A DNA stretch of 42,995 bases from Eubacteriales bacterium (GTDB lineage Bacteria; Bacillota; Clostridia; Oscillospirales; CAG-382). Under the pieces are notes generated by a model. The model was not told where the DNA came from. It saw only the letters and a list, made by a program, of their open reading frames with translations, and ran no database searches. This document shows positions 1-42,877 of this stretch, piece by piece; position 1 is the first letter of the stretch; the number at the start of each line of letters is the position of its first letter. The translations under genes and the position numbers were made by a program. The stretch lies in assembly GCA_045532495.1 (NCBI GenBank), contig JAZSGA010000186.1, forward strand, positions 1-42,995, read 5' to 3'.

Positions 1-362
1 AAAAAGTAACCAAAAAAGAACCTTGCTTTTTACGAAGTTCATGCGGTAAAGCTTTCCTTTAAGGCGCACGCTGGCATAACGCCTTTTTACGGCAGATTTA
101 CATGTGCCTTTTCCGCAACTGCGTGCGGATTTATTGTACCAACCTTTTACCGATATCAAAAAATGTGTTGGGGTATAAACGGCAACCGATATGAAGTGAG
201 GAGCCTACTTGCCTTCCTTGCGGAAAAACTGCGTATTTTCCAAAAACGGTGTATTTTTCCGTTGGGTAGCCTCGGGTTATATGATTTATGAACACATGTC
301 AAAGCCGTGCCGTTTTTTTGCACAATTATAAACTCTGCACTCTTTAAGTTTACAGTTTGTCA

Positions 363-391
363 TTGAAATCTGCCGCATTTGGTAATATAAT
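363..391 (+). promoter_or_regulatory. sigma-A promoter of the PBP2 operon
   Basis: TTGAAA (363-368), 17-nt spacer, TATAAT (386-391). Confidence 0.7.
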
Positions 392-428
392 TATAATCGG
401 AATAATACAACGAAAGGCGGTATACATC

Positions 429-27964: not shown

Positions 27965-30424
27965 TTACTTTTTAAGTCCGAGATCTTCAATGGACATTTC
28001 GCGCATTTTGTACTTAAGTATTTTTCCTGCCGCATTCATCGGAAACTCTTTCACAAACACAAAGTATCGGGGCACTTTATGGCGGGCGATGGAAGCGTTG
28101 CCGTATTCACGCATTTCGTTTTCGTCGGCGGTTTCGCCCTTATGCAGGATTATCCATGCACAACATTCCTCGCCGTACTTTTCGTCGGGCACGCCAACCA
28201 CCTGCACATCACGCACTTTGGGGTTGGTGAGGTAAAACTCCTCGATCTCACGGGGGTAAAGATTTTCGCCGCCGCGGATAATCATATCCTTAAGGCGTCC
28301 CGTAACCTTAAAATATCCGTCGGGGGTACGGCAGCATATATCTCCGCTGTGCAACCAACCGTCGGCATCAATGGTCTGTGCTGTGGCCTCGGGCATTTTG
28401 TAATAACCCTTCATTATGTTGAAGCCGCGTGCCACAAATTCGCCGTTTTCGCCATCGGGAACTTCAAGACCTGTTTCGGGATCAATAACTTTACATTCCA
28501 CACCGGGGAACGGGCTGCCTACGGTTTCAACACGGTGGTCAAGATCCTCGTTTACCTCGCCCATGGTGCATCCGGGGGATGCTTCGGTCTGACCGTAAAC
28601 GGAAATTATTTCTTTCATGTTCATTTCGTCCGCCGCACGGCGCATAAGGTCGGCAGGGCAGTTGGCACCTGCCATAATGCCGGTACGCATATACGAAAAA
28701 TCGGTTTTTGCAAAATCCGCATGTCCAAACATGGCAATAAACATGGTGGGCACACCGTTAAAACAGGTTATGCGCTCGTTGTTTATACATGCCAGCGACG
28801 ATTTGGGTGAAAAATACGGCATGGGCGAAAGTGTGCCGCCGTGGGTCATGGTGGATGTCATGGAAAGCACCATGCCAAAGCAATGGAACATGGGCACCTG
28901 TATCATCATGCGGTCGGCGGTGGAAAGATCCATTCTGTCGCCTATGATTTTGCCGTTGTTTACAATGTTGCGGTGGGTAAGCATAACGCCCTTGGGGAAA
29001 CCCGTTGTGCCCGATGTATACTGCATGTTGCAAACATCGTCGGGTTTAACAAGGGATGCTCTGCGGCGCACTTCCTCGTGGGGGACAAGGGATGCCCGTG
29101 AAAGCATCTGCTCCCATGTAAGACAGCCTGTCATTGAAAATCCCACGGTTACCACGTTGCGCAAAAAGGGCAGATTTTTGGAATAAAGAGCGTCGCCCGG
29201 CTTTGTCTTTTGCAATTCGGGGCAAAGTTCTTCGATAATTTCACGGTAGTTTATATCCTTGCAGTCCTCTATCATAACAAGGGTATGGGTATCGGACTGA
29301 CGGAGCAGATATTCTATTTCGTGTATTTTATAGGCGGTGTTTACCGTTACAAGCACGGCGCCGATTTTTGTGGTTGCCCAAAAGGTAATAAACCACGCAG
29401 GCACATTTGTTGCCCACACAGCCACATGGTCGCCTGCCTTTACGCCCAGCGATATAAGTGCGGCGGCACATTCATCCACATCCCTGCGGAACTCGGCATA
29501 TGTGCGTGTGTAATCCAGCGTTGTGTATTTGAATACGTACTGGTCGGGGTATTTTTCCACCATGGTATCCAACACATCGGAAAATGTTGCATCGATGATA
29601 TCGTACTTTTTCCAGGGGAAAGTACCTGTTTTTGAACGGTTGTAATATGCCTTGTCACGGTCGGTTTTTTTGCGTCCCAGCGAGGCAATGTAATTTGAAA
29701 AGTGGGTAAGAACTATATCCGCATCGTTTATTTCATCGTTCCATGCGGCACATACATAACCGTCAAAATTGAGGGATGAAAGCGCATTTACAAAGGAATC
29801 CACGGGCAAATCGCCTTCGCCTATAAGCACGGTTTTGCCGTCCTTCATATCGCCAAGGCGTACATATTTGATATATGCGCCCAAATTTTTGATGGTGGTT
29901 TCCGCACTTTCGCCTGCGCCGAAGTGGGTACCGCGCACATTCCATGCGGCACCAAGAACCGCCGACGAAAAGTAGTTTATAACCTCGGTAACGTTTTCGG
30001 TTTCGGAAAGCCAGCCCACGGTTTCAAGCAGAATACGCACATCCGCCTTTTCGGCAAGCTTTATTGCCGCCTGAAGCTTTTCGGCAAGCTTATCAAAGGG
30101 CATTTTTTCCTCGGCGCGGACAATTATCTGCTCTATTCCCGCAGAGCCCGCAAGGGTTACATATTTTGCCACTTCATCAACCAAAGCCTCATCCGTGTGC
30201 AGCGAATGTGGATAATGGAGTGCGGAAACGGCAAGCTGACGGTTTATAAGCTTGCGCTTTGAATCCGCTGTGCGGTCGCTGCGCAAAACACTGTCGTAAT
30301 GCTGTTTGCGCTCCTTTATTGCATCGTATATTTCAAAACCTGCGTAACCGTAATCGTAAGCATAGCGGCAGGTATCTATAAATGTGGCACGGGTGACATT
30401 TTTTGTCGAAAAAACCAGCTTCAT
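27965..30424 (-). CDS. Fusion of a degenerate xylose-isomerase-like TIM barrel and an AMP-forming acyl-CoA ligase
   Basis: C-terminal YTSGTTGFPKG, YGQTE, LHSGD, GRLKDMIIRGGEN and GKILK; N-terminal ~255 aa sugar-phosphate isomerase-like; RBS GAGGAGG before ATG at 30424. Confidence 0.85.
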   Translation of the reverse strand: MKLVFSTKNVTRATFIDTCRYAYDYGYAGFEIYDAIKERKQHYDSVLRSDRTADSKRKLINRQLAVSALHYPHSLHTDEALVDEVAKYVTLAGSAGIEQIIVRAEEKMPFDKLAEKLQAAIKLAEKADVRILLETVGWLSETENVTEVINYFSSAVLGAAWNVRGTHFGAGESAETTIKNLGAYIKYVRLGDMKDGKTVLIGEGDLPVDSFVNALSSLNFDGYVCAAWNDEINDADIVLTHFSNYIASLGRKKTDRDKAYYNRSKTGTFPWKKYDIIDATFSDVLDTMVEKYPDQYVFKYTTLDYTRTYAEFRRDVDECAAALISLGVKAGDHVAVWATNVPAWFITFWATTKIGAVLVTVNTAYKIHEIEYLLRQSDTHTLVMIEDCKDINYREIIEELCPELQKTKPGDALYSKNLPFLRNVVTVGFSMTGCLTWEQMLSRASLVPHEEVRRRASLVKPDDVCNMQYTSGTTGFPKGVMLTHRNIVNNGKIIGDRMDLSTADRMMIQVPMFHCFGMVLSMTSTMTHGGTLSPMPYFSPKSSLACINNERITCFNGVPTMFIAMFGHADFAKTDFSYMRTGIMAGANCPADLMRRAADEMNMKEIISVYGQTEASPGCTMGEVNEDLDHRVETVGSPFPGVECKVIDPETGLEVPDGENGEFVARGFNIMKGYYKMPEATAQTIDADGWLHSGDICCRTPDGYFKVTGRLKDMIIRGGENLYPREIEEFYLTNPKVRDVQVVGVPDEKYGEECCAWIILHKGETADENEMREYGNASIARHKVPRYFVFVKEFPMNAAGKILKYKMREMSIEDLGLKK

Positions 30425-30425
30425 T

Positions 30426-31814
30426 TTATTCCTCCTCAAACACTATCTTGTTGAGAGCGTTTATATATGCACGCACGCTTGCCGCCATAATGTCGGTGGA
30501 GCTTCCGTTGCCTGCATAAAGCTTGCCGTTGTTGCGGAGTCTTACAAGAACGGAGCCAAGCGCTTCCTTGCCCTCGGTAACGGCCTGAATCTGGAAATCG
30601 TCCAGCTCGTAATGGTGGCCGATGCACTGTTCGATGGCACGGAACAAAGAATCCACGGGGCCGTCGCCTGTGCTTACACCGCAAAGCATTTCATCGCCGC
30701 AGCGCAGAGTTACCTGTGACATGGAGCTTGTGAGGTTTCCGCAGTTGGTGGTATAGTTTTCAAGATGATATGTGGAAGGAGCCTGCATTGCAAAGCTGGC
30801 AATAAGGGATTCAAATTCCTTTGCACCCACGGAGCCCTTCTTTTCGCATACCTGCATAAGAGCCTTGTATACGTTGCCGCAATCCTCATCGGAAAGGTCA
30901 TAGCCCAGCACATTTGCCGCCTGGGCAACCTGGGAAATGGTGCTTTCGGAATCAAGCAGTATCTTTTTGCGCTCGCTTACCTGAGCGGCGGTTTCGTATG
31001 CCTGATGGTTTATGCCTGCCAGCATATCCTCAACGCTTGCATGTATTTTTGTGTTTTGAAGTCCTGTGCAGATGCCCAAAACATCGCCGCGGGCGGTAAC
31101 CGCATCGGAAAATTTGCCCACAGAAAGAGCTTCGTTTCCTGCCATGGCGCATTTTATACCTTCTGCACCTGCGGAAATTGCCGCCAGAGCACATGCAACT
31201 GCCATGCCCAGCTTATCGGAAACCTGAACGTAAACGGACACATCCACCGCTTGCTTTACACATTTTACAAGCTGTGCCAGCTCCTCGGGAAGGGCTGTGC
31301 CTGCGGTATCGCAAAGGGTTATCATGCCTGCACCGTTATCTGCCGCCTGCTTTACCGCCGCAACGATAAAATCGGTATCGGCGCGGGTGGCATCCTGCGC
31401 ACAGAATTCCACGTCGTTGCAAAGTGCTTTTGCGGCGGCGCAAAGCTCGCCTATTTTTGCCGCCATTTTATCGGCTTTCATGTGGTAGGTATATTCCATC
31501 TGAACGGTGGAAACAGGCACTTCGATCTGAAGACGGGGATTTGCCGCATCCTTTATGCAGTCCCAGGCATCGCCAACGCCTGCCACATCAAAGCCCACGG
31601 GAACTGCCACGGTGCAATTTGCAAGATTCTGAGCTATTGTTTTGTATATTATGGTATCCTCACGCAGGTTTTTAATGGGCGCAAGCTCCACGGCATCGGC
31701 ACCAAGGGATGCCGCGCAGGAAGCGATGGCAGTTTTTTCACGGAACAGCAAAGAAACTTCACGCTGAGCCGCCAGTGTTTTAAGTGTGATGTCGGTGATG
31801 TTGATTCTTTTCAT
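30426..31814 (-). CDS. LeuA (2-isopropylmalate synthase)-like protein with degenerate active site and intact allosteric domain
   Basis: Aligns by eye with LeuA (VEF..QDATR, DTAG, GDGPVD, STDIMAAS) but lacks the RDGEQ, HxH and GERAGN motifs; RBS GGAGG. Confidence 0.8.
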   Translation of the reverse strand: MKRINITDITLKTLAAQREVSLLFREKTAIASCAASLGADAVELAPIKNLREDTIIYKTIAQNLANCTVAVPVGFDVAGVGDAWDCIKDAANPRLQIEVPVSTVQMEYTYHMKADKMAAKIGELCAAAKALCNDVEFCAQDATRADTDFIVAAVKQAADNGAGMITLCDTAGTALPEELAQLVKCVKQAVDVSVYVQVSDKLGMAVACALAAISAGAEGIKCAMAGNEALSVGKFSDAVTARGDVLGICTGLQNTKIHASVEDMLAGINHQAYETAAQVSERKKILLDSESTISQVAQAANVLGYDLSDEDCGNVYKALMQVCEKKGSVGAKEFESLIASFAMQAPSTYHLENYTTNCGNLTSSMSQVTLRCGDEMLCGVSTGDGPVDSLFRAIEQCIGHHYELDDFQIQAVTEGKEALGSVLVRLRNNGKLYAGNGSSTDIMAASVRAYINALNKIVFEEE

Positions 31815-31889: not shown

Positions 31890-32160
31890 TAAAAAAAACG
31901 CCCCCGTCTCATTGAAAACCAAAGAGACGAAAGCGTAAAAAGCAAAACTTCCGCGGTACCACTCTTCTTCACCAAAAAGGTGCACTTTGATGCAAACACA
32001 TCTTAACTCTGTTACGGGAGTACCCGTCTGCCCCTACTGGAGAAAATTCACGGCAGCCGCTCCGCGGTGAGTTCTGTAAAATTCCGCCCACTGCCTTGCA
32101 GCAACCGGCAGCTCTCTGAATGGGGGAAAAGCACATACTATTCCGCATCATTGCGTTTGT
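31890..32160 (-). ncRNA. Leu T-box riboswitch
   Basis: AGAGAG and GCTG stem-I motifs, specifier GAA-CTC (CTC at 32069-32071), T-box AGAGTGGTACCGCG (31952-31965), terminator ending GAGACGGGGGCGTTTTTTTT. Confidence 0.9.
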
Positions 32161-32317: not shown

Positions 32318-32710
32318 ATGTTTCAGCTTGATCTTGGCGATCACCGTCCAATTTATGAGCAGATCAAAGAAAAGCTCAAATTTCTTATCATCGGCGGAAG
32401 CCTTTCCGACGGCGATAAAATTCCATCGGTGCGTGAGCTTGCCGTAAGCATGGCAATAAACCCCAACACCATCCAAAAAGCTTACAAGGAGCTGGAAAGC
32501 GAGGGTTACATACACTCGCAAAAGGCAAAAGGCTATTTTGTTTCGCCACGAAGCGAGGCCGAAAAGTCGGATACCGGTGAGCTTATGGCACGCTTTACCG
32601 ATGCATCCCGCGAGCTTATGTATATGGGCAAAACCTACGCCGAGCTTTGCGGAATTCTTGAGCAGATTTACAAAGGAGGTAACAGTAATGGAAATGACAA
32701 CGCAGAATGA
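32318..32710 (+). CDS. GntR family regulator, YtrA subfamily
   Basis: PIYEQI, IPSVRELA, INPNTIQKAYKELE; 130 aa; precedes an ABC transporter. Confidence 0.9.
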   Translation: MFQLDLGDHRPIYEQIKEKLKFLIIGGSLSDGDKIPSVRELAVSMAINPNTIQKAYKELESEGYIHSQKAKGYFVSPRSEAEKSDTGELMARFTDASRELMYMGKTYAELCGILEQIYKGGNSNGNDNAE

Positions 32711-33626
32711 CACCATGATAAGTGCCGTAAACGTGACCAAAACCTTTGATGGTTTCCGTGCGCTGGATAACTTAAGCCTTAACGTAAAAAAAGGCTCGGT
32801 TTACGGTCTTGTGGGGCCAAACGGTGCAGGCAAAACCACCTTTATAAAAGCCCTTATGGGCGTTTACCGTGCCGACAGCGGCGAAATGATGCTTGACGGC
32901 AAGGTTATTTACGAAAACGAGCAGGTAAAAAGCCGCATGATATATGTTTGCGACGACTTGTTTTTTTACCCCACCTATACCATAGAGCAAACAGCAAAAA
33001 TGTATGCGGATATTTACCCCAAATGGAGCTGGGAGCTTTTTAACAAGCTGCACGAAATATATAAAATGGATCTTAAGCGCAAGGTCATACGCCTTTCAAA
33101 GGGTATGCAAAAGCAGGTGGCTTTTTGGCTCGGAATATCTGCCCAGCCCGATGTTATGATACTGGATGAGCCCATTGACGGACTTGACCCGGTAATGCGC
33201 CGCAACACATGGCGCCTTGTGCTTAATGAGGTGGCAGAGCGTGGCATGACAGTGCTTATTTCCAGCCACAACCTGCGCGAGCTTGAGGATGTATGCGACC
33301 ACGTGGGCATAATGTTTGGCGGAAAAATGGTTATAGAAAAATCGCTGGACGATGTAAAAGGCAATATCCATAAAATTCAGCTTGCCTTTGAAAAAGGCGG
33401 CAGCGACGAAAAGCTTGCGCAGCTTGAAGCAAAGCTTGATATACTTCACACAGGCCGTATGGGCAGCGTTGCAAGCCTTATTGTAAAAGGCGATATCGAC
33501 GAGGTGCGCAGGGTTATTACGGAATATTCGCCCGTGGTATTTGATATAATTCCGCTTACGCTTGAGGAAGTGTTTATTTACGAACTGGGAGGTATGGGTT
33601 ATGAGTTTGAAAACATCCTTATCTGA
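32688..33626 (+). CDS. ABC-2 type transporter ATP-binding protein (YtrB-like)
   Basis: GPNGAGKTT, LSKGM, ILDEP, SSH; RBS AAGGAGG before ATG at 32688. Confidence 0.9.
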   Translation: MEMTTQNDTMISAVNVTKTFDGFRALDNLSLNVKKGSVYGLVGPNGAGKTTFIKALMGVYRADSGEMMLDGKVIYENEQVKSRMIYVCDDLFFYPTYTIEQTAKMYADIYPKWSWELFNKLHEIYKMDLKRKVIRLSKGMQKQVAFWLGISAQPDVMILDEPIDGLDPVMRRNTWRLVLNEVAERGMTVLISSHNLRELEDVCDHVGIMFGGKMVIEKSLDDVKGNIHKIQLAFEKGGSDEKLAQLEAKLDILHTGRMGSVASLIVKGDIDEVRRVITEYSPVVFDIIPLTLEEVFIYELGGMGYEFENILI

Positions 33627-35697
33627 AAAGCCCGTTTCACGTGCTCTTATAAAATCCGATCTGCGCAACCACTGGCCATGGCCCGTTGTGGCGTTTGTTA
33701 TAATGCTTTTAAACTTCATGGCGGCAACGGATTCTTATTACCGCATGGATATTGTAAAAGTAACACGCTTTACAAACGATTTTACCTTCACATATTTTGC
33801 AATGTGCGTTTACGGTCTTTTTGTGGGCACAAAGCTGTTTATGTATTTGGATAAAATAAACTCCGTTTCATGCATGCACGGCCTGCCTTTTTCAAGGCTT
33901 AAGCTTTATCTTTCCCACATTTGCTCCGGCTGTATTCTTATGTTTGCACCAGCCGTTGCAACATCGCTTATAATCCTTGTTTCACGCACGGTGCCCGCAG
34001 AATATGCCTTTATGTTTTTGGTTTCCTGCATTATTTATGCATCCATGGCATTTGCCGTGGCGGTATTTGCCATGACAGTATGCGGAAACATGGTGGTTTC
34101 CGTACTGTTTTCGCTGGCCATTGCCATTTTCCCTGCGGCAATACTTGCTTTTTCCGTATATATTTGCAATATGAATCTTTACGGCTATGCGGAGCCCGAG
34201 CTGCTTGAGCAGATAATGTATTTTCTTTATGTTATGCCCGATAAGCTGTTCCCATGGCGGTTTGCCATATATCTTGTGGCGTCGCTGGGCTTCCTTGCGG
34301 CAGGCTATGCCGTTTACCGTGTACGTCCGTTGGAAAACTGCGAGGAGGTTGTGGCTTTCAAAAAACTGCGCCCCATGTTTATTTACGCCGTGGGCCTGGT
34401 TACGGGTATGATAAGCTACTTTTTCTTCTGCAGCATACTTGACGGCACATCCGTTATGTATATGCTGCCCCTGGGACTTGTGGGTGTTGTAGCCGCAGTT
34501 ATGATAGCACGCAAAACCGTATCGCTTAAAGGTTCGGGGCGCCATGTTATAATATACACCGCCGCAGTTACAGCTATTATGCTGTGCATGCAGTATGATA
34601 TAACAGGTTACGAAACCCGTGTGCCCGATGCCGATAAAATAGCGTATGCCGAAATCAACGGCGGCATAGGTTCAGGCTCCCGTTATTACCGCGATTTTGA
34701 ATTCAGATACGATTCTCTGCCCGAAAACCGCCTCACCGAGCTTAATGAGCTGGAGGCTCTTACTCAGCTGCACGCAGCATACGCATCCGAGCATGACAGA
34801 ATCCACCTGCACACCAACAGCATTTTCGGAATGTATAACCGTGATAATATTGAGATCACATACAAGCTCAAAAACGGCACGGTGATGAAGCGCCGTTACG
34901 ACGGACTTTCCGTGGAAAACTTTGACAAATACATGCTTCCCTTCCTCAACCTTGAAAAGGTAAAATCGTGGCAGTATCCTCTTATCGACAGCACCGCCAA
35001 GGAAATACTTTCCGCCGCAGTATATGACAGCAGAATCCAGAATGCGGCAAAAGGCTTTGAGGCAGCGGATGCCGTTATACTTTACGATGCATTGTGTGCC
35101 GATATCCGCTCTTTGCCCGTGGATAAACTTTATTCAAGGGGCAAAATAACCGTTGATATCGAGTATTATGTGCCCGGTACCATAATTGCAACGGGCATAC
35201 GTCCCAAAGGCATGCAGCAAAAACGCGCATACGGTACGGAAACAAGTATAAAGATCAACGAAAACTATACCCACACCCTGGCGGCACTAAAAAGGCTGGG
35301 CTACGATATAACAAATCCCAAAGATTTTGAAAAAGTAAAATCGGCGGTGGTTTCGAATATAACGGAAAACGAACAGTATTATTATGACAGTGTTATCGTT
35401 GAGGAAACCACATCCTTCCCCATGGCTGCGGTTACCGAGGAATATGTAAAATATGCCGATGAATACGGTAAGGATTATACCGTTGTTACCGACAGAGCCG
35501 ACCTTGAAAAGCTTTATGATCTTTGCGGAAAAGGCTTTATGGGCAACGCGCAAGTGGAGGATTTTGAAAAGCTTGAGGTTTATATCATATCTCTCCGCGA
35601 TGAAAACGATAAGGAAATTTTCGGCAGCGAATTTGTTGTTATCCACGATAAACTTCCGCAAACGCTGAAAAAATATTTCCTGCAGCCGCAGAAATAA
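33601..35697 (+). CDS. ABC transporter permease with large C-terminal soluble domain
   Basis: Multiple TM segments in the N-terminal half, HGLPFSR motif; RBS GGAGG before ATG at 33601. Confidence 0.75.
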   Translation: MSLKTSLSEKPVSRALIKSDLRNHWPWPVVAFVIMLLNFMAATDSYYRMDIVKVTRFTNDFTFTYFAMCVYGLFVGTKLFMYLDKINSVSCMHGLPFSRLKLYLSHICSGCILMFAPAVATSLIILVSRTVPAEYAFMFLVSCIIYASMAFAVAVFAMTVCGNMVVSVLFSLAIAIFPAAILAFSVYICNMNLYGYAEPELLEQIMYFLYVMPDKLFPWRFAIYLVASLGFLAAGYAVYRVRPLENCEEVVAFKKLRPMFIYAVGLVTGMISYFFFCSILDGTSVMYMLPLGLVGVVAAVMIARKTVSLKGSGRHVIIYTAAVTAIMLCMQYDITGYETRVPDADKIAYAEINGGIGSGSRYYRDFEFRYDSLPENRLTELNELEALTQLHAAYASEHDRIHLHTNSIFGMYNRDNIEITYKLKNGTVMKRRYDGLSVENFDKYMLPFLNLEKVKSWQYPLIDSTAKEILSAAVYDSRIQNAAKGFEAADAVILYDALCADIRSLPVDKLYSRGKITVDIEYYVPGTIIATGIRPKGMQQKRAYGTETSIKINENYTHTLAALKRLGYDITNPKDFEKVKSAVVSNITENEQYYYDSVIVEETTSFPMAAVTEEYVKYADEYGKDYTVVTDRADLEKLYDLCGKGFMGNAQVEDFEKLEVYIISLRDENDKEIFGSEFVVIHDKLPQTLKKYFLQPQK

Positions 35698-35847: not shown

Positions 35848-35876
35848 TTGACAAATCAAAACGGCGGTGGTATAAT
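35848..35876 (+). promoter_or_regulatory. sigma-A promoter of leader-ilvE-vor operon
   Basis: Perfect TTGACA-N17-TATAAT with TG extension. Confidence 0.9.
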
Positions 35877-35909
35877 ATTCGACATATTAATAAAGGAGAA
35901 GTACCAACA

Positions 35910-36023
35910 ATGGCCTCGGCAGTTAATTTCGGTATAATTTGCATCGGCTTTATTATCGCTATTATTATTGCAATTGCAGTCATTATTAACAGCAATTCGG
36001 ATAGCGCTATTTGTCGTGCATAA
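35910..36023 (+). CDS. Putative Ile-rich attenuator leader peptide, 37 aa (MASAVNFGIICIGFIIAIIIAIAVIINSNSDSAICRA)
   Basis: RBS AAAGGAG 11 nt upstream, 12 Ile codons, located between the promoter and a terminator upstream of ilvE. Confidence 0.7.
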   Translation: MASAVNFGIICIGFIIAIIIAIAVIINSNSDSAICRA

Positions 36024-36071
36024 AACCGTAAATTACTAATTGGTTCTACCTTTAATTCTACAGTAATTTTT

Positions 36072-36101
36072 AGGCTTGCGGCATTTAGCTGCAAGCCTTT
36101 T
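36072..36101 (+). terminator. Attenuator terminator upstream of ilvE
   Basis: AGGCTTGCGGC-ATTTA-GCTGCAAGCCT followed by TTT, ending just before the ilvE RBS. Confidence 0.7.
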
Positions 36102-36125
36102 ATAATTTAATCGGAGGAATTGAAA

Positions 36126-37196
36126 ATGCTTGACATTAAAATCCAGAAGAATCCCGCGCCCAAGGCAAAGCCTGCGGACGAAACAAAGCTTGGCTTCGGC
36201 AAAGTGTTTACCGACCACATGTTTATTATGAACTACACCGAAGGCACCGGCTGGCACGATGCACGCATCGTTCCCTACGCACCCATAAGCCTTGAACCTT
36301 CCGCAATGGTTTTCCATTACGGTCAGGAAATGTTTGAAGGCCTTAAGGCTTACCGCGGAAAGGACGGCAAAAGCCGCCTGTTCCGCCCCGACATGAACGC
36401 AAAGCGTGCAAACGAATCCAACCGCCGTCTTTGCATCCCGGAGATCCCCGAAGAAGATTTTGTTCAGGCAATAAAAGCCCTTGTTAAAGTTGACGAGGAC
36501 TGGATCCCCACAGCAGAGGGCACATCCCTTTATATCCGTCCCTTTGTTATTGCAACCGATGAATTTTTGGGTGTTGCTCCTTCAAAAACCTACCTTTTTA
36601 TTATAATACTTTCTCCCAGCGGAGCATACTACGCTTCCGGCCTTGCACCCGTTGGTATTTGGATCGAAGACGAATACGTGCGTGCGGTTAAGGGCGGTAT
36701 CGGCTACGCAAAAACCGGCGGCAACTATGCAGCCAGCCTTAAGGCTCAGGTTAAGGCGCATGATGACGGCTATTCCCAGGTGCTTTGGCTTGACGGTGTT
36801 GAAAGAAAGTACATTGAAGAAGTTGGCGCAATGAACATCTTCTTCAAGATCGACGGAAAAATCGTAACCCCCATGCTCAACGGCAGCATACTTCCCGGTA
36901 TAACACGCAACTCGGTTATTCACCTTTGCAAATCCTGGGGTATGGAAGTTGAAGAACGCAGAATCTCTGTTGACGAGCTTATCGAAGCCCAAAACAACGG
37001 CAAGCTTGAAGAATGTTTCGGCACAGGTACAGCCGCAGTTATATCCCCCGTTGGCAAGCTCCGTTACAAGGACGAGGTTATGACCATCGGCGATGGCGGC
37101 ATCGGAACCACCAGCCAGAAGATATACGATACCGTAACAGGAATTCAGTGGGGCACCTCCGAAGACAAGTTCGGCTGGTCTGTTGTTGTTGAATAA
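36126..37196 (+). CDS. ilvE: Branched-chain amino acid aminotransferase
   Basis: FGKVFTDHM, HYGQEMFEGLKAY, KTGGNY, EEVGAMN, LPGITR, GTGTAAVISP; GGAGG 8 nt before ATG at 36126. Confidence 0.95.
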   Translation: MLDIKIQKNPAPKAKPADETKLGFGKVFTDHMFIMNYTEGTGWHDARIVPYAPISLEPSAMVFHYGQEMFEGLKAYRGKDGKSRLFRPDMNAKRANESNRRLCIPEIPEEDFVQAIKALVKVDEDWIPTAEGTSLYIRPFVIATDEFLGVAPSKTYLFIIILSPSGAYYASGLAPVGIWIEDEYVRAVKGGIGYAKTGGNYAASLKAQVKAHDDGYSQVLWLDGVERKYIEEVGAMNIFFKIDGKIVTPMLNGSILPGITRNSVIHLCKSWGMEVEERRISVDELIEAQNNGKLEECFGTGTAAVISPVGKLRYKDEVMTIGDGGIGTTSQKIYDTVTGIQWGTSEDKFGWSVVVE

Positions 37197-37864
37197 TGAA
37201 GCGCATAACAATTTTTGCCGGCCATTACGGCAGCGGCAAAACCAATGTGGCTGTAAATTATGCCCTGGGCATTGCGGGCGAGGGCAAAAAGGTTTCACTT
37301 TCCGACCTTGACATTGTAAACCCCTACTTCCGCTCCAAGGACAGCGAAAAGCTGCTGCGTGATGCAGGCATACGCTTTATATCGTCGGAATACGCAAACT
37401 CCAATGTGGATGTGCCGGCACTTCCGCCGGAAGCATATGCCGTAACCGCCGATAAAACCGCCTTTGCCGTGGTGGATGTGGGCGGCGATGACAGGGGCGC
37501 TTTGGCGCTGGGCAGATACGTGCCCGATATCCTTGCCGAAAACAGCTACGAAATGCTTTTTGTTATAAACAAATTCCGTCCGCTTACACGGGATGCGGCA
37601 AGCACCGTGGAGGTAATGCGTGAGATCGAGCAGGCGGCAAAAATAAAATTTACCGGCATAGTAAACAACTCAAACCTTGGTGATGAAACCACGGCAGATG
37701 ATGTTATCGCATCGTTGGATTATGCGGAACAAGTTTCCGCCGCCACAGGGTTGCCCATAAAATTTACTTCCGTTCATCACACTCTTGCGCCGCAGCTTGA
37801 CGGAAAAATTCCGGATATATTCCCCATAAAGCTGTATATACGTCAGTCCTGGGGAACCGTTTAA
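37196..37864 (+). CDS. Uncharacterised P-loop NTPase (MinD/ParA/CobQ-like)
   Basis: GHYGSGKT, DLDIVNPYFRS, DVGGDDRGA; TAATG overlap with ilvE. Confidence 0.75.
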   Translation: MKRITIFAGHYGSGKTNVAVNYALGIAGEGKKVSLSDLDIVNPYFRSKDSEKLLRDAGIRFISSEYANSNVDVPALPPEAYAVTADKTAFAVVDVGGDDRGALALGRYVPDILAENSYEMLFVINKFRPLTRDAASTVEVMREIEQAAKIKFTGIVNNSNLGDETTADDVIASLDYAEQVSAATGLPIKFTSVHHTLAPQLDGKIPDIFPIKLYIRQSWGTV

Positions 37865-37895: not shown

Positions 37896-38099
37896 ATGGC
37901 AAAAGTTACATTTAACGAGGATCTTTGCAAAGGCTGCGGTCTTTGCGTGGGTGCTTGTCCCAAAAAAATTGTAAAGCTTAAAACCGAAATCAACATCAAG
38001 GGTTACAACCCTGCCCATGTTGAAGATCAATCCGCATGTATAGGCTGCGCTTTCTGCGCCACCATGTGCCCCGACTGTGTTATAACAGTTGAAAAGTAA
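37896..38099 (+). CDS. 2[4Fe-4S] ferredoxin-like delta subunit of 2-oxoacid:ferredoxin oxidoreductase
   Basis: CKGCGLCVGACP and CIGCAFCATMCP. Confidence 0.9.
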   Translation: MAKVTFNEDLCKGCGLCVGACPKKIVKLKTEINIKGYNPAHVEDQSACIGCAFCATMCPDCVITVEK

Positions 38100-38117: not shown

Positions 38118-39185
38118 ATGTCAGATAAAGTCTTGATGAAGGGCAACGAAGCCCTTGCGGAAGCTGCCATTATGGCAGGCTGCCGCCATTATTTCGGTTA
38201 TCCCATTACTCCCCAAACCGAAGTTGCGGCTTACATGGCCAAGAGAATGCCCAAAATTGACGGCGTTTTCCTTCAGGCAGAAAGTGAAATTGCCGCTATC
38301 AATATGGTTATAGGCGTTGCCGCCACCGGCAAACGCGTTATGACATCCAGCTCATCCCCCGGAATTTCGCTTAAGAGCGAAGGTATTTCCTACCTTGCAG
38401 GCTGCGATCTGCCTGCTCTTATCGTAAACGTACAGCGAGGCGGCCCCGGTCTTGGCGGCATCCAGCCTTCTCAGGCAGATTACTTCCAGGCAACCCGCGG
38501 CGCAGGCCACGGCGATTTCCATTTGCTTGTACTTGCACCTGCTTCTGTTCAGGAAATGGTAAATCTGGTGTTCAAGGGCTTTGACCTTGCCGAAAAATAC
38601 AGAATGCCTGCCATGATCCTTTCCGACGGTACCATGGGACAAATGATGGAACCCGTAAGCCTTGATACGCTTCCCATCAACGAATATGATAAATCCTGGG
38701 CTCTTACCGGTACAAAGTGCCAGCGCAAGCCCAACATTATAAACTCCCTTTGCCTTAAGGCAGAAGAGCTTGAACGCTTAAACATTGAGCGTTACCAGCG
38801 TTACGCCGAGGTGGAAAAGAACGAAGTAATGTACGAAGAATATCGCATGGAAGATGCCGAAATATGCATCGTTGCCTTTGGTGTTGCGGCGCGTGTTTCG
38901 CAGAATGCCATCGATAAGGCACGCGAGCAGGGCATAAAAGTGGGCATGATCCGTCCCATTACCCTGTGGCCTTTCCCCAAAAAGGCGCTTTGCGATGCGG
39001 CAGATAAAGTTAAATCCTTTATTTCCGTTGAGCTTTCCATGGGCCAGATGGTAGAAGATATTGAACTGGCTATCCGCTGCAAAAAGCCCGTTACCCTTTG
39101 CTCCAGAGTGGGCGGTATGATTCCCTCCACCGAAGATGTTCTTGCAAAGATTTACGAGGCAAATTCCACAGGAGGTAACAACTGA
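38118..39185 (+). CDS. vorB: Branched-chain 2-oxoacid:ferredoxin oxidoreductase alpha subunit (VorB-type)
   Basis: MKGNEALAEAA, YPITPQ, QAESE, SSSSPG, RGGPGLG. Confidence 0.88.
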   Translation: MSDKVLMKGNEALAEAAIMAGCRHYFGYPITPQTEVAAYMAKRMPKIDGVFLQAESEIAAINMVIGVAATGKRVMTSSSSPGISLKSEGISYLAGCDLPALIVNVQRGGPGLGGIQPSQADYFQATRGAGHGDFHLLVLAPASVQEMVNLVFKGFDLAEKYRMPAMILSDGTMGQMMEPVSLDTLPINEYDKSWALTGTKCQRKPNIINSLCLKAEELERLNIERYQRYAEVEKNEVMYEEYRMEDAEICIVAFGVAARVSQNAIDKAREQGIKVGMIRPITLWPFPKKALCDAADKVKSFISVELSMGQMVEDIELAIRCKKPVTLCSRVGGMIPSTEDVLAKIYEANSTGGNN

Positions 39186-39943
39186 TGACAACTGTATTTA
39201 AAAAACCCGAGGCTCTTACCGATGCACCGCTTCATTATTGCCCCGGCTGTACCCACGGTATTATTCACAGACTTGTTGCCGAAGCCATTGACGAGCTGGG
39301 CATAAGAGGCAGAACCTTTGGTGTTGCTTCTGTCGGCTGCTCGGTATTTACTTACAACTACTTTAACTGCGATATGGTTCAGGCGGCTCACGGCCGTGCA
39401 CCCGCAGTTGCCACCGGCGTTAAAAGATCCGATCCCCAAAACAACATCGTATTTACATATCAGGGTGACGGCGACCTTGCCGCCATCGGTACCGCCGAAA
39501 CAGTTCATTCCGCTGCCCGCGGCGAAAACATTACCGTTATTTTCGTTAACAACGCAATTTACGGTATGACAGGCGGTCAGATGGCACCCACCACGCTTCC
39601 CGGTCAGGTTACACAAACATCTCCTTACGGCCGTGATGTAAACACCGTTGGTTACCCCGTTAAGGTTTGCGAAATGCTTTCCAAGGTGGACGGTGCCACA
39701 TACCTTGAACGTGTTGCCGTTAATAACGTTAAAAACGTGCGTGCCGCAAAGGCTGCCATTAAAAAGGCTTTCCAGAATCAGATCGAAGGCAAGGGCTTCT
39801 CTTTGGTAGAAGTACTTTCCACCTGCCCCACCAACTGGGGTATGACTCCCGATAAAGCCCTTAACTGGCTTGAAGAAAACATGATTCCTTATTACCCCTT
39901 AGGCGTATACAAGGACAAGTACGCAGAAAGCGAGGTAAAATAA
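39185..39943 (+). CDS. 2-oxoacid:ferredoxin oxidoreductase beta (TPP-binding) subunit
   Basis: HYCPGCTHG, HGRA, QGDGD...NN, YGMTGGQ, CPTNWG. Confidence 0.9.
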   Translation: MTTVFKKPEALTDAPLHYCPGCTHGIIHRLVAEAIDELGIRGRTFGVASVGCSVFTYNYFNCDMVQAAHGRAPAVATGVKRSDPQNNIVFTYQGDGDLAAIGTAETVHSAARGENITVIFVNNAIYGMTGGQMAPTTLPGQVTQTSPYGRDVNTVGYPVKVCEMLSKVDGATYLERVAVNNVKNVRAAKAAIKKAFQNQIEGKGFSLVEVLSTCPTNWGMTPDKALNWLEENMIPYYPLGVYKDKYAESEVK

Positions 39944-39944
39944 G

Positions 39945-40481
39945 ATGACAACTCAAATACTTTTTGCAGGCTTTGGCGGCCAGGGTATTCTTTTCTCGGG
40001 AAAATTCTTGGCATACGAGGGCTTGCTTGCCGATAAAGAAGTAAGCTGGCTTCCCTCATACGGCCCCGAAATGCGCGGCGGTACAGCCAACTGCAGCGTA
40101 ATTATAAGCGATACAAAGATCGGCTCTCCCATCGTTACCGAGCCCGATGTACTTATCGCCATGAACCTGCCCTCCCTTGACAAATACGAGGGCGACACAG
40201 CAAAGGGCGGCAAAATTTTTGTTGACAGCTCGCTTATTTCCAAAAAGGTTGAAAGAACCGACGTTGAAGCATATTATATTCCTGCCACAGCGTTAGCGTC
40301 CGAAAGCGGACTTACAGGCCTTGCAAATATGATCATGCTGGGCTACATTATCAAAAAAACCGGCATTATGCCCATCGAAAACATCGACAGAGCTCTGGCA
40401 AAGGTGGTTTCTGCAAGAAAACAGGATCTTCTCGGCGCCAACAAAAAGGCTCTTGAGCTGGGTTATAACTACGCCGAATAA
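39945..40481 (+). CDS. 2-oxoacid:ferredoxin oxidoreductase gamma subunit
   Basis: [27 protein letters not shown]. Confidence 0.9.
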
Positions 40482-40517: not shown

Positions 40518-41072
40518 ATGAATGATCAGCTTAAAGATATAGGCATGCGTCTTGCCTGCATCCGTGAGGACTGTGAAATGACCGATGTACAATTGGCCGA
40601 AAAGCTGGGTGTTGATATTGACACCTATCGCTCATATGAAAAAGGAGAGATCGATTTTTCGTTCAGCTTTGTTTACAATGCTGCCGAAATTCTCGGCGTG
40701 GATGTGCTTGATATTATAAGCGGATCTTCTCCCACTCTCTCCACCTGTTGTATGGTTAAAAAAGGCAGAGGCTATTCTGTTAAACGCGAGGAAGACTACG
40801 ATTACAAGCACCTGGCGTACACCTTTAAAAACAAAAAGTCCGAGCCTTTCCTTGTAACCATCACCCCCGAAGAAAAAGCTCCCGTGCTCCACGGCCACGA
40901 AGGACAGGAGTTTAACTACATCCTTGAAGGAAAAATTACCTTCTACATTGGTGAAATTTGCTACGAGCTTGAAGAGGGCGACAGTGTTTATTTTGATTCC
41001 ACCGTGCCCCACGCCATTAAAACCACCGACGATAACCCTGCAAAATTTATTGCAGTGGTGGTTAAAAACTAA
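40518..41072 (+). CDS. XRE-family HTH regulator with C-terminal cupin domain
   Basis: N-terminal HTH (YEKGE), HEGQEFNYILEG and GDSVYFDSTVPH. Confidence 0.9.
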   Translation: MNDQLKDIGMRLACIREDCEMTDVQLAEKLGVDIDTYRSYEKGEIDFSFSFVYNAAEILGVDVLDIISGSSPTLSTCCMVKKGRGYSVKREEDYDYKHLAYTFKNKKSEPFLVTITPEEKAPVLHGHEGQEFNYILEGKITFYIGEICYELEEGDSVYFDSTVPHAIKTTDDNPAKFIAVVVKN

Positions 41073-41105: not shown

Positions 41106-42800
41106 ATGGCAATATACGAAAAATTTGTGGGCGCCAGCCGTGACGATTTCCTTTCGCTCAAGGATGCCCAGAAAAACTACAAACTCACCTGGAACGAGGA
41201 TTTTAACTTCGCCTATGACGTTATGGACGAGCTTGCCCGTACAAAACCCGATAAGCTTGCCATGCTTTGGGTTTCCCGCGAGGGCGAAGAAAAACGCTTT
41301 ACGTTCCACGATATGATGATATACTCCAACAAGGTGGCAAATTATCTGCGCTACCTGGGTGTTAAAAAAGGCGATAAGGTTTTGCTTGTTATGAAGCGCA
41401 GCCACTATTTTTGGCACACCGTTATGGCATTGCATAAAATCGGTGCCGTTATGGTGCAGGCAACCTTTATGCTTACCCCCAAGGAATACGTTTACCGCTG
41501 TAACAAGGCAGGCATAAAATATGCCATCCTCACCGGCGACGGCAACTGCACCGAGCAGTTTGACGAGCGTGCGGACGAATACGAAACAGTAGTAAAAAAG
41601 ATGGTTCTCGGCCACAAAAAGGCAGAGGGCTGGCTGGATTTTGAGGACGGTGTTGCCACCGCCAGCGATGAATGGACAAGACCCACCGGCAAGGATGCCA
41701 TCTATGCCAACGACACATCCATCCTTGGCTTTACATCCGGCACAAACGGTTACCCCAAAATGGTTTTCCATGATTTCCGCTACCCCTTGGGCCACATCAT
41801 GACAGGTGTTTTTTGGCACCGTGTTGTGGACGGCGGTTTGCATTTTACAATTTCCGATACCGGCTGGCTTAAATCGCTGTGGGGCAAAATGTACGGTCAG
41901 TGGTTTGGTGAATCCGCCGTGCTGGTTTACGATTTTGATAAGTTTGATGCGCAGGATATTCTTTCCAAGCTGGAAAAATACAAGGTTACCACCTTCTGCG
42001 TACCCCCCACAATGTACCGTCTGCTTTTGCAGCAGGATGTAAAGAGCTATGATCTTTCATCGCTCACCCATTGCTGTACTGCAGGTGAGGCGCTTAATCC
42101 CGAAATTTTCAACAAATGGAAGGAAGCCACAGGCCTTGAGCTTTATGAGGGCTTCGGTCAGACCGAAACCACCCTTTGCGTTGCCACCATCTACCCCTGG
42201 ACAAAGCCCGTTCCCGGTGCCATGGGCCTGCCCGTGCCCGGTTTTGATGTACATATCCTGGGTGATGACGGCGAAAACGTGCCCCACGGTACCAACGGCG
42301 AGATCTGCATACGCACATTAAGCTCCGACAGACACCCCTGCGGCCTTATGCGCTCCTACAACGAAAGCGCAGAGGATACCGACAGAGCAATTTATCAGGG
42401 CTACTACCACACAGGTGACGTGGCATACCGTGATGAATTCGGTCTTTACCGCTACATCGGCAGAAACGATGACGTTATCAAGTCCAGCGGCTACCGCATA
42501 AGCCCGTTTGAAATCGAAAGCGTTATGCTTGAGCACCCTGCGGTGTTTGAGGTTGCGGTTACAGGCGTTCCCGATCCCGTGCGCGGCTTTGCCGTTAAGG
42601 CAACAGTTGCTCTTGCCGAAGGCTATGAGGGCAGCGATGAGCTTACCAAGGAGCTGCAGACCTACGTTAAAAAGAATACCGCTCCCTATAAATACCCCCG
42701 CGTTATCGAATACGTTAAGGCGTTGCCCAAAACATTTAACGGCAAAATCCGCCGTGTTGAAATACGTAACAGCGATCAGCAGAAGTACGAAAATAAATAA
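41106..42800 (+). CDS. AMP-forming short/medium-chain acyl-CoA synthetase (ACSM/MACS-like)
   Basis: FNFAYDV, FTSGTNGYPKMV, SDTGW, GFGQTET, YHTGD, IKSSGYRI, PYKYPR, GKIRR. Confidence 0.9.
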   Translation: MAIYEKFVGASRDDFLSLKDAQKNYKLTWNEDFNFAYDVMDELARTKPDKLAMLWVSREGEEKRFTFHDMMIYSNKVANYLRYLGVKKGDKVLLVMKRSHYFWHTVMALHKIGAVMVQATFMLTPKEYVYRCNKAGIKYAILTGDGNCTEQFDERADEYETVVKKMVLGHKKAEGWLDFEDGVATASDEWTRPTGKDAIYANDTSILGFTSGTNGYPKMVFHDFRYPLGHIMTGVFWHRVVDGGLHFTISDTGWLKSLWGKMYGQWFGESAVLVYDFDKFDAQDILSKLEKYKVTTFCVPPTMYRLLLQQDVKSYDLSSLTHCCTAGEALNPEIFNKWKEATGLELYEGFGQTETTLCVATIYPWTKPVPGAMGLPVPGFDVHILGDDGENVPHGTNGEICIRTLSSDRHPCGLMRSYNESAEDTDRAIYQGYYHTGDVAYRDEFGLYRYIGRNDDVIKSSGYRISPFEIESVMLEHPAVFEVAVTGVPDPVRGFAVKATVALAEGYEGSDELTKELQTYVKKNTAPYKYPRVIEYVKALPKTFNGKIRRVEIRNSDQQKYENK

Positions 42801-42802
42801 TA

Positions 42803-42832
42803 AAAAAGCCACGGTTAAACCCGTGGCTTTTT
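42803..42832. terminator. Intrinsic terminator of the ilvE-vor operon (likely bidirectional)
   Basis: AAAAAGCCACGG-TTAAAC-CCGTGGCTTTTT. Confidence 0.85.
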
Positions 42833-42877
42833 CTATGTTCCCGGTTGCAATGCGATGGAGGCAAAAAGTTGGTACAA

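Follow-up and report, generated by a model that had tools for sequence, protein, structure and literature searches.

The 42,995-nucleotide stretch of DNA analysed here in its entirety (hereafter the window; contig JAZSGA010000186.1 of the Eubacteriales assembly GCA_045532495.1, positions 1 to 42,995) carries an operon that opens with ilvE, encoding a branched-chain amino acid aminotransferase, and continues with genes for a VorB-type 2-oxoacid:ferredoxin oxidoreductase (VOR), a helix-turn-helix (HTH)-cupin transcription regulator, and an acyl-CoA synthetase of the short-chain type (Table 1). Upstream of ilvE lies a leader comprising a sigma-70-type promoter, a short open reading frame (ORF) rich in isoleucine (Ile) codons, and an intrinsic terminator, for which a preliminary description of the window had proposed Ile-responsive transcription attenuation of the ilvL/thrL type acting on ilvE-vor. 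Leader-peptide attenuation is a classical mode of control of branched-chain amino acid operons in enterobacteria, where ilvGMEDA (leader ilvL) and ilvBN (leader ivbL) are preceded by a promoter-proximal short ORF rich in the regulated codons, the RNA can adopt 1:2, 2:3, and 3:4 pairings between its regions, and stalling of the ribosome leads to read-through. The conservation of the leader, the covariation of its pairings, the modelling of ribosome positions, and the gene context support this core reading for the present locus, and we judge it highly probable that the element is a classical four-region, ribosome-mediated, Ile-sensing leader-peptide transcription attenuator of the ilvL/trpL type before ilvE-vor.

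Table 1. Features of the leader, its operon, and the neighbouring T-box locus, in coordinates of the window
Feature	Position	Strand	Details
Xylose-isomerase-like TIM barrel::AMP-binding acyl-CoA synthetase fusion	27965-30439	-	824 amino acids; follows leuA-like gene
leuA-like gene	30426-31814	-	HMGL-like and LeuA_dimer domains
T-box	31920-32160	-	specifier read as CUC (leucine); precedes leuA-like gene
Sigma-70-type promoter	35848-35876	+	hexamers at 35848 (-35) and 35876 (-10); 17-nt spacer, TG extension, 12 of 12 consensus matches
Ribosome-binding site of leader ORF	35893-35898	+	11 nt 5′ of ATG
Leader ORF (protein P0001)	35910-36023	+	37 codons and stop; 12 Ile, 2 valine, 0 leucine
Region 1	35921-35963	+	pairs with region 2 in untranslated RNA; contains strands 35926-35931 and 35957-35963
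Regulatory Ile codon stretch, proposed stall zone	35934-35987	+	codons 9-26, 11 Ile
Region 2	36000-36037	+	last codons, stop codon 36021-36023, and 14 nt beyond; strands 36006-36019 and 36030-36037
Region 3	36062-36089	+	3′ arm of inner hairpin 36062-36069 and antiterminator 3′ strand 36074-36089
Intrinsic terminator (regions 3:4)	36072-36108	+	stem 36072-36082 / 36088-36098, 5-nt loop, U-rich tail 36099-36108
Ribosome-binding site of ilvE	36113-36117	+	
ilvE, branched-chain amino acid aminotransferase	36126-37196	+	NF009897 508.9 bits (cut-off 307); TIGR01123 419.8 (cut-off 250)
CbiA/ParA-like P-loop protein	37196-37864	+	222 amino acids; weak Pfam matches, no NCBIfam family
Ferredoxin-type delta subunit	37896-38099	+	67 amino acids; oxidoreductase gene set
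VorB-type alpha subunit	38118-39185	+	NF005507 540.3 bits (cut-off 399)
Beta subunit, 2-oxoacid:ferredoxin oxidoreductase	39185-39943	+	
Gamma subunit, 2-oxoacid:ferredoxin oxidoreductase	39945-40481	+	
HTH-cupin transcription regulator	40518-41072	+	
Short-chain acyl-CoA synthetase	41106-42800	+	best family MbcS, NF047394 410.4 bits (under cut-off 850)
Two-way terminator hairpin ending operon	42802-42833	.	13 pairs, found on minus strand

The promoter, the ribosome-binding site, the 37-codon ORF with its counts of Ile, valine (Val), and leucine (Leu) codons, and the terminator 3′ of that ORF are all present in the window as the preliminary description had listed them, and the start of ilvE was corrected to the ATG at 36126 from 36127. 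Ile occupies codons 9, 10, 12, 15, 16, 18, 19, 20, 22, 25, 26, and 34 of the leader ORF, and Val occupies codons 5 and 24. Homologous leaders were found in ten genomes of the genus to which the window's genome belongs (loci L001-L009 and L011), and in all ten both promoter hexamers are kept, a similar purine-rich site stands 5′ of the leader ATG, and the reading frame is preserved at lengths of 34-38 codons that differ by whole codons. The terminator stem consists of 11 pairs, seven of them G-C, and is separated from the ATG of ilvE by 27 nt; a promoter scan of this interval found no promoter-like site, so that a transcript from the strong promoter must pass the terminator to reach ilvE, and the separate ilvE promoter downstream of the hairpin that would have told against attenuation was not found there. 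Folding of the leader was also better than that of shuffled sequences (z -3.41; 1 of 200 shuffles equally good).

The leader appears to be restricted to this genus, whose members are uncultured Clostridia from animal and human gut and from rumen. The ilvE gene was detected in 40 of 41 related genomes. A homologous leader ORF, flanked by a promoter and a terminator that are both conserved, was present at ten of the 29 ilvE loci with upstream sequence, all ten from the window's genus, and was absent 5′ of ilvE at the 19 such loci from other genera; the Ile- and Val-rich upstream ORFs that were to be sought before ilvE-vor in relatives are thus found in every one of the ten genus genomes. A covariance model (R1), built from the ten genus leaders (alignment A2), scored at E-values of 1e-23 to 1e-38 in these genomes; of the 141 family genomes outside the genus, 17 gave matches, all of them weak. 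Eighteen of the 19 weakly matching places were inspected (all but L059), and 17 proved to be terminators at the ends of unrelated genes; the remaining one, L051, is a different leader-like ORF before ilvB. Among 80 named public ilvE loci, the leader occurred only at L060, on the same contig as genus member G001, and a protein homology search with a 42-residue in-frame stretch returned two matches only, the window's own and one at 89% identity. A degenerate 19-nt pattern of region 2, tried against metagenomes, hit at least 120 stretches, which were dismissed as chance matches, with none of the 80 loci fetched matching R1. Rfam gave nothing in the leader region at gathering level, only a T-box at a distance, and the best sub-threshold match to the leader belonged to an unrelated family (E 0.27; 20.2 bits against a gathering score of 76). 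Contigs from metatranscriptomes (two runs of one study) covered conserved pieces of ilvE only, most at below 95% identity, and count neither way.

Conservation within the leader is concentrated where the proposed switch would operate. Across the 36 pairs among nine closer species, identity reaches 97% in the 23-nt core of region 2, which spans the stop codon and the codons that precede it, and 93% in the terminator, and the spacer between them and the 5′ part of the leader ORF stand at 49% and 59%, respectively; the corresponding figures for ilvE are 91% for the protein and 58% for synonymous third positions. The terminator is paired in 100% of alignment cells across all ten homologues, with five pairs changed on both sides and none of 500 shuffles as good. 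Its competitor is a helix between 36006-36019, the last five codons directly before the stop codon, and 36074-36089, which takes in most of the 5′ arm of the terminator, the loop, and the first two nucleotides of the 3′ arm. This antiterminator forms 12 pairs in the window and is paired in 87.1% of the cells of alignment A1 (3 of 500 shuffles as good). Two of its pairs show changes in both partners and four in one partner only. Slid registers of the same strands reach just 27-49%. The unpaired cells form two U-U columns, both of which become pairs in L011 and one of which does so in L008. The terminator loop is unusually conserved because it takes part in the antiterminator helix. The energy of the antiterminator duplex is -16.0 kcal/mol in the window, -15.7 to -16.5 in L002-L009, and -22.4 in L011, and that of the terminator hairpin ranges from -15.8 to -20.5 kcal/mol across homologues; for positions 35990-36107 as a whole, the terminator state is at -30.9 and the antiterminator state at -23.1 kcal/mol.

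The preliminary description had put the alternative pairing elsewhere, between 36030-36037 and 36062-36069, with an imperfect four-pair extension reaching into the 5′ arm of the terminator. The hairpin it named is real, occurring in the minimum-energy fold and surpassing shuffles in seven of the ten homologues (at most 21 of 200 as good). As that fold also contains the terminator, the hairpin was rejected as an antiterminator in its own right; it instead sits in the loop of the antiterminator, the two forming one long 2:3 structure. The competing helix (36006-36019 with 36074-36089) lies in a different register from the four-pair extension. The 5′ side of the leader contributes a long-range helix between codons 6-8 (35926-35931) and 36026-36031, just after the stop codon, which carries compensatory changes in L008, L009, and L011 and surpasses shuffles in all ten homologues (2-21 of 300 as good). 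The pairing of regions 1 and 2 in the fold of the free leader also uses 35957-35963 with 36000-36006, and some species add 35940-35948 with 36013-36020; a role for 1:2 as a strong anti-antiterminator was considered and is unsupported in seven of the ten homologues. Ranked by complementarity of the 5′ arm to a segment 40-80 nt upstream, the terminator stands 9th among 397 terminator-like hairpins of the genome. Three other hairpins of the genome (on contigs C152, C56, and C199) exceed it in this measure and may be other attenuators or the expression platforms of riboswitches.

The effect of the ribosome on these pairings was modelled by equilibrium folding of the RNA cut just before region 4, with a 28-nt ribosome footprint masked. 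Under this scheme, the probability of the antiterminator is 0 in all ten homologues when the ribosomal A site is at the stop codon or in the last ~6-11 codons (varying by homologue), and it reaches at least 0.8 in all ten with the A site at some upstream codons, which differ widely between homologues in how much of the Ile run they take in and do not include every Ile codon. Without a ribosome, the probability is at most 0.23 in six of the ten (L001, L003, L004, L006, L008, and L009). Folding with and without the ribosome-covered region, a check that had been suggested beforehand, thus bears out the blocking of the antiterminator by a ribosome at the stop codon in all ten homologues; in the model, the gate between a ribosome at the stop codon and one stalled upstream is clear and the default-off arm is variable. 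The stop codon lies directly beside the antiterminator strand in nine of the ten homologues, and in L011 it lies three codons downstream, inside an extended pairing.

From these parts, their conservation, their alternative pairings, and their placement relative to the stop codon, all of which are given directly by the sequence and the computations, we infer the following course of events. Transcription would begin a few bases after the -10 box at 35876, and the 37-codon leader ORF would be translated as RNA polymerase advances. With Ile-tRNA plentiful, the ribosome would reach the stop codon (36021-36023) and cover region 2 (36006-36037), leaving region 3 to pair with region 4, such that the terminator (36072-36098) would form and transcription would end before ilvE. 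When charged Ile-tRNA is scarce, the ribosome would stall on the Ile codons of 35934-35987 and keep region 1 off region 2; 36006-36019 would then pair with 36074-36089, accompanied by the inner hairpin, and with the terminator thereby blocked the polymerase would read through into the operon. Finally, if no translation takes place, region 1 (35921-35963) would tend to pair with region 2, and the terminator would form.

The richness of the leader in Ile was evaluated against the background of the window's own genome (2.43 Mb in 279 contigs, ~80% complete). A screen of small ORFs (10-65 codons with a ribosome-binding site, at least five of one residue within a 12-residue window, and a terminator within 160 nt) passed 34 of 5751 candidates, among which the leader ORF ranks first with a count of eight. 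From 2364 long ORFs, 832 membrane-helix-like windows of 20 residues were drawn, in which Ile makes up 13% and Leu 14% of residues; the top Ile count among them is eight (two windows), and none of the 832 holds at least ten Ile and no Leu, whereas in the corresponding window of the leader Leu is absent and Ile occurs 11 times. Relatives retain Ile in 83 of the 108 cells that make up the 12 Ile columns of the leader, and in eight of these columns its share is 90% or more. The remaining 25 cells comprise nine polar residues (asparagine, threonine, serine, tyrosine, and aspartate), five Leu, four Val (all in L011), one phenylalanine, one alanine, and five gaps, and asparagine, tyrosine, aspartate, or glutamate stands inside the hydrophobic stretch in several homologues. 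The free replacement of Ile by Leu, Val, or phenylalanine that would have spoken for a stable membrane protein is not seen at the 12 columns, and the leader likewise departs from the signature of a membrane peptide or type I toxin, for which free exchange among these four residues and a core devoid of polar residues would be expected. Judged from the alignment, the substitution pattern fits a run of regulatory codons and is unlike the evolution of a membrane helix. The composition is shifted in L011, whose leader has five Ile and six Val; Val is the other amino acid served by a VOR/IlvE route. The next Ile-rich candidate in the genome is a 30-codon ORF on contig C222 (4611-4703, minus strand) with an Ile-rich hydrophobic core, several cysteines, and its own terminator, which precedes a separate promoter and a lipoprotein-like gene and is not a leader.

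Several observations weigh against this reading of the element. The full-length RNA at equilibrium folds to the terminator at every ribosome position; the switch must hence be kinetic, and a terminator that wins at equilibrium is usual for attenuators. In four of the ten homologues (L002, L005, L007, and L011), the antiterminator is favoured without a ribosome (0.48-0.98), so default-off behaviour is not general. Even within the proposed stall zone the response is uneven, as in the window's leader an A site anywhere within codons 23-26 gives an antiterminator probability of 0.02-0.03, and in L003 and L008 the probability is at most 0.05 from the 14th codon after the start onwards, a span that covers most of the Ile codons. 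The lineages that supply independent covariation are few, namely L011, the pair L008/L009, and the main clade; the inner hairpin is no better than shuffles in L008, L009, and L011; and in seven of the ten, shuffles do as well as the central part of the pairing between regions 1 and 2. The Ile core codons also lie in the conserved short helix, and their conservation may in part be at the level of the RNA. With regard to the genes controlled, Val, and perhaps Leu, is likewise served by VOR and IlvE, but main-clade leaders contain only one or two Val codons and zero to two Leu codons, and the acyl-CoA synthetase, scoring 410.4 bits against the MbcS cut-off of 850, is a relative of that family only.

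The order of genes in the operon is identical in the five genus members fetched. Its oxidoreductase is assigned to the VorB type on an alpha subunit scoring above the family cut-off, on adjacent beta, gamma, and delta subunits, and on the presence of POR_N, TPP_enzyme_C, and POR domains. The P-loop protein encoded at 37196-37864 is kept inside the vor module at all eight loci compared, across families and at 58-79% identity; it may help the oxidoreductase to mature or bring iron-sulfur clusters to it. Action of the closing hairpin (42802-42833) on the plus strand as well is suggested by symmetric flanking runs of A and T. Upstream of the leader, at 32318-35697, the window encodes a GntR-family regulator, an ABC-type ATPase, and a 711-amino-acid protein without a Pfam or NCBIfam family.

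The acyl-CoA synthetase, VOR, and IlvE of the operon represent the steps of a reductive-carboxylation route that leads from short branched fatty acids to the corresponding amino acids; with transamination as the last step, 2-methylbutyrate or isobutyrate would be turned into Ile and probably also into Val. MbcS of Staphylococcus aureus activates 2-methylbutyrate and isobutyrate (PMC10026030), a rumen route of reductive carboxylation from 2-methylbutyrate to Ile is mentioned in PMC2812497, and one from isovalerate to Leu is mentioned in PMC7356843. Models of ilvB, ilvD, and ilvC had no match in the window's genome and were each positive in 14 of 14 control genomes. Across the genus, ilvC and ilvD were not found in nine of ten genomes (75-97% complete), with ilvB searched in the window's genome only. 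The sole genus genome with ilvC and ilvD is G002 (58% complete), where both lie at the start of one contig, and many sister genera carry both genes. The genus therefore appears to be without the usual ilvC/ilvD route; the genomes are incomplete and absence is not proof, but nine of ten are consistent with it. In the window's genome, models of leuC and leuB gave nothing beyond weak, sub-cut-off matches, which we read, from the lengths of the open frames alone, as aconitase-like and isocitrate-dehydrogenase-like.

The same module occurs behind a different charging sensor in other families of the order. In three such genomes (G028, G036, and G038), the gene set has another arrangement, starting with an HTH-cupin::acyl-CoA synthetase fusion gene and continuing with the genes for the P-loop protein and the ferredoxin, the three vor genes, and finally ilvE. 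Two of these genomes have a T-box (RF00230; 100.6 and 101.6 bits) directly before the fusion gene. The fusion proteins at these loci (L260, L261, and L262) are ~760-800 amino acids long and correspond to separate genes in the operon of the window's genus, and G028 and G036 have two such synthetase genes in tandem. Counting paralogues, the N-terminal 272 residues of the fusion find matches in 193 of the order's 301 genomes, and a scan of 20 further fusion loci found a T-box above the gathering score before the fusion in four. One of these four is in the window's own genome, on contig C9, where the T-box (L293:1173-1408, minus strand) precedes a fusion gene (307-1125, minus strand) truncated where the contig stops. 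Five bases preceding the stem that closes the specifier loop are identical in all six T-boxes, and from alignment to the model we read their specifier as GUA (Val), a reading that depends on register, the neighbouring one giving a cysteine codon. G006, another member of the genus, has the fusion by itself, followed by a gene resembling short-chain dehydrogenases and with no second vor cluster.

The preliminary description had also held that the lack of Leu codons in the leader complements a Leu T-box next door. That T-box is real, but it lies ~3.7 kb away on the other strand and precedes a leuA-like gene, which is itself followed by a further acyl-CoA synthetase fusion (Table 1); the complementing of the two sensors is plausible, and is strengthened by the T-box read as Val-specific in the same genome. 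The window's genome thus seems to hold three charging sensors, one for each branched-chain amino acid and each before a paralogue of the acyl-CoA synthetase. A sister genus carries two ORFs, of 39 codons (G014, L264:4014-4133) and 44 codons (G102, L051), in which Ile, Val, and Leu abound; each stands with a terminator before ilvB-ilvN-ilvC, and they are probably separate leader-peptide attenuators, which would mean that ribosome-mediated attenuation is no one-off in the family.

Of the other explanations, the one that fares best keeps the attenuator and reverses the chemistry, such that the operon degrades branched-chain amino acids to branched fatty acids or supplies branched acyl-CoA primers for membrane lipids, a flux that the leader would then tune. 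The reactions of VOR and IlvE are reversible, the formation of isobutyrate, 2-methylbutyrate, and isovalerate out of branched-chain amino acids is widely reported for gut bacteria, and MbcS of S. aureus feeds lipid synthesis (PMC10026030). Yet inducing degradation when the charging of Ile-tRNA is low makes no regulatory sense, and an AMP-forming acyl-CoA synthetase spends ATP on free acids, which fits uptake rather than excretion. The failure to find ilvC and ilvD in nine of ten genus genomes, or ilvB in the window's own (the sole one searched for it), likewise counts against such a role, as does the placement of the same module elsewhere behind T-boxes, which induce on uncharged tRNA. We consider this explanation unlikely.

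Rather improbable, in our estimation, is a conserved leader RNA that is switched by another factor, whether a protein, with the HTH-cupin regulator and RNA-binding proteins as examples, or else a tRNA or metabolite, with the ORF incidental or auxiliary. The strong conservation of region 2 and the terminator as RNA, the covariation of the long-range helix, the overlap of the Ile core with a conserved helix, and the control of the same module by T-box RNA in other families are all compatible with such a switch, but the leader matches no Rfam family, the ORF retains its ribosome-binding site, start codon, and frame in ten of ten homologues despite insertions and deletions, its Ile excess reaches beyond the paired segments, and its stop codon lies exactly beside the antiterminator strand in nine of ten. 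Least credible, and in our view very improbable, is a small hydrophobic membrane micropeptide or toxin-like peptide with its own promoter and terminator, ilvE being reached by incidental read-through: residues 7-26 do resemble one membrane helix, a small gene for an Ile-rich hydrophobic peptide, likewise equipped with a terminator, does occur at least once more in the genome (that on C222), and the C-terminal six residues are kept even in L011, where three of four nucleotide changes fall at third positions, but 11 Ile without Leu in 20 residues is unmatched among the helix-like windows, lost Ile is replaced by polar as often as by hydrophobic residues and acidic residues occur mid-stretch, synonymous conservation of the last codons is far above neutral and these codons pair with the terminator through compensatory changes, there is no room for an ilvE promoter 3′ of the terminator, and enterobacterial branched-chain leaders look equally hydrophobic.

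As an Ile-sensing leader-peptide attenuator, the element resembles ilvL and ivbL in its short ORF, alternative pairings, intrinsic terminator, and the hydrophobic look of its peptide, but it has no sequence or Rfam relation to them, is almost purely Ile-specific in the main clade, and comes from a metagenome-assembled genome of the Clostridia, where its targets are ilvE, vor, and an acyl-CoA synthetase gene rather than the acetolactate pathway. The T-box (RF00230) before acs-vor-ilvE shares its genes, its read-out of charging, and its choice between terminator and antiterminator; however, a T-box binds uncharged tRNA directly and without translation, the specifier there is read as GUA (Val), and the element described here is without T-box features.

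The logic of leader-peptide attenuation is described in general terms in PMC5794164 and PMC9413887. In Listeria monocytogenes, Rli60 before ilvD is an experimentally proven attenuator with a 13-amino-acid peptide, acting on a canonical ilv-leu operon that is also under CodY (PMC5864092). Its antiterminator (2:3) and terminator (3:4) have energies of -10.3 and -17.1 kcal/mol; both it and the present element are thus Firmicutes leaders with branched-chain codons and an antiterminator weaker than the terminator, whereas the peptide here has 37 amino acids and the target differs. The ilvD leader of S. aureus (26 amino acids, dominated by Leu, with Ile and Leu codons) has genetic support and controls the canonical pathway, its operon being induced by mupirocin, which blocks the charging of Ile-tRNA (PMC5794164). 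It and the present element are both Firmicutes leaders combining a terminator with an alternative antiterminator, with no homology detected between them. Leader predictions for Lactococcus and Streptococcus are also cited in PMC5794164, and histidine leaders have been predicted by comparative genomics in the Clostridia (Peptostreptococcaceae and Lutispora; PMC9413887), which, unlike the leader here, use histidine codons before his operons, in other families and with unrelated sequence. Regular leader peptides replacing T-boxes in Firmicutes were noted by Naville and Gautheret (PMC2965389). The preliminary description was accordingly right about the layout, but in contrasting it with the T-boxes and CodY control prevalent in Firmicutes it overstated the rarity of such leaders, given Rli60, the S. 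aureus ilvD leader, the Lactococcus and Streptococcus predictions, and the histidine leaders of Clostridia. Our literature search, which left most subscription journals outside its coverage, turned up no account of a leader peptide controlling either branched-chain amino acid genes in Clostridia or any ilvE-vor operon.

The mechanism is textbook, and what is new is the group and the pathway controlled. A gene set of acyl-CoA synthetase, VOR, and IlvE is usually annotated as amino-acid fermentation, and a starvation switch on an operon of these enzymes argues for the direction from fatty acid to amino acid in this genus. As nine of its ten genomes yielded no ilvC or ilvD and the window's yielded no ilvB, we predict that the genus relies on neighbours for branched short-chain fatty acids. 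Small ORFs such as the one described here deserve annotation as leaders rather than as hypothetical membrane proteins, and a module that related families place under a T-box in one case and under a leader peptide in the other offers a clean case in which to study how charging sensors replace each other. A broader picture, which we offer tentatively and with somewhat less than even confidence, is that the genus gave up the acetolactate pathway and salvages branched short-chain fatty acids by means of the synthetase, VOR, and IlvE, with the three amino acids sensed separately: Ile by the leader before ilvE-vor-acs, Val by the T-box before the HTH-cupin::synthetase fusion, and Leu by the T-box before the leuA-like gene and the third synthetase fusion, the Ile leader having arisen where sister families keep a T-box. 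If this is true, the locus would show a leader peptide having naturally taken the place of a T-box and would provide regulatory evidence for the synthetic direction of VOR in gut anaerobes.

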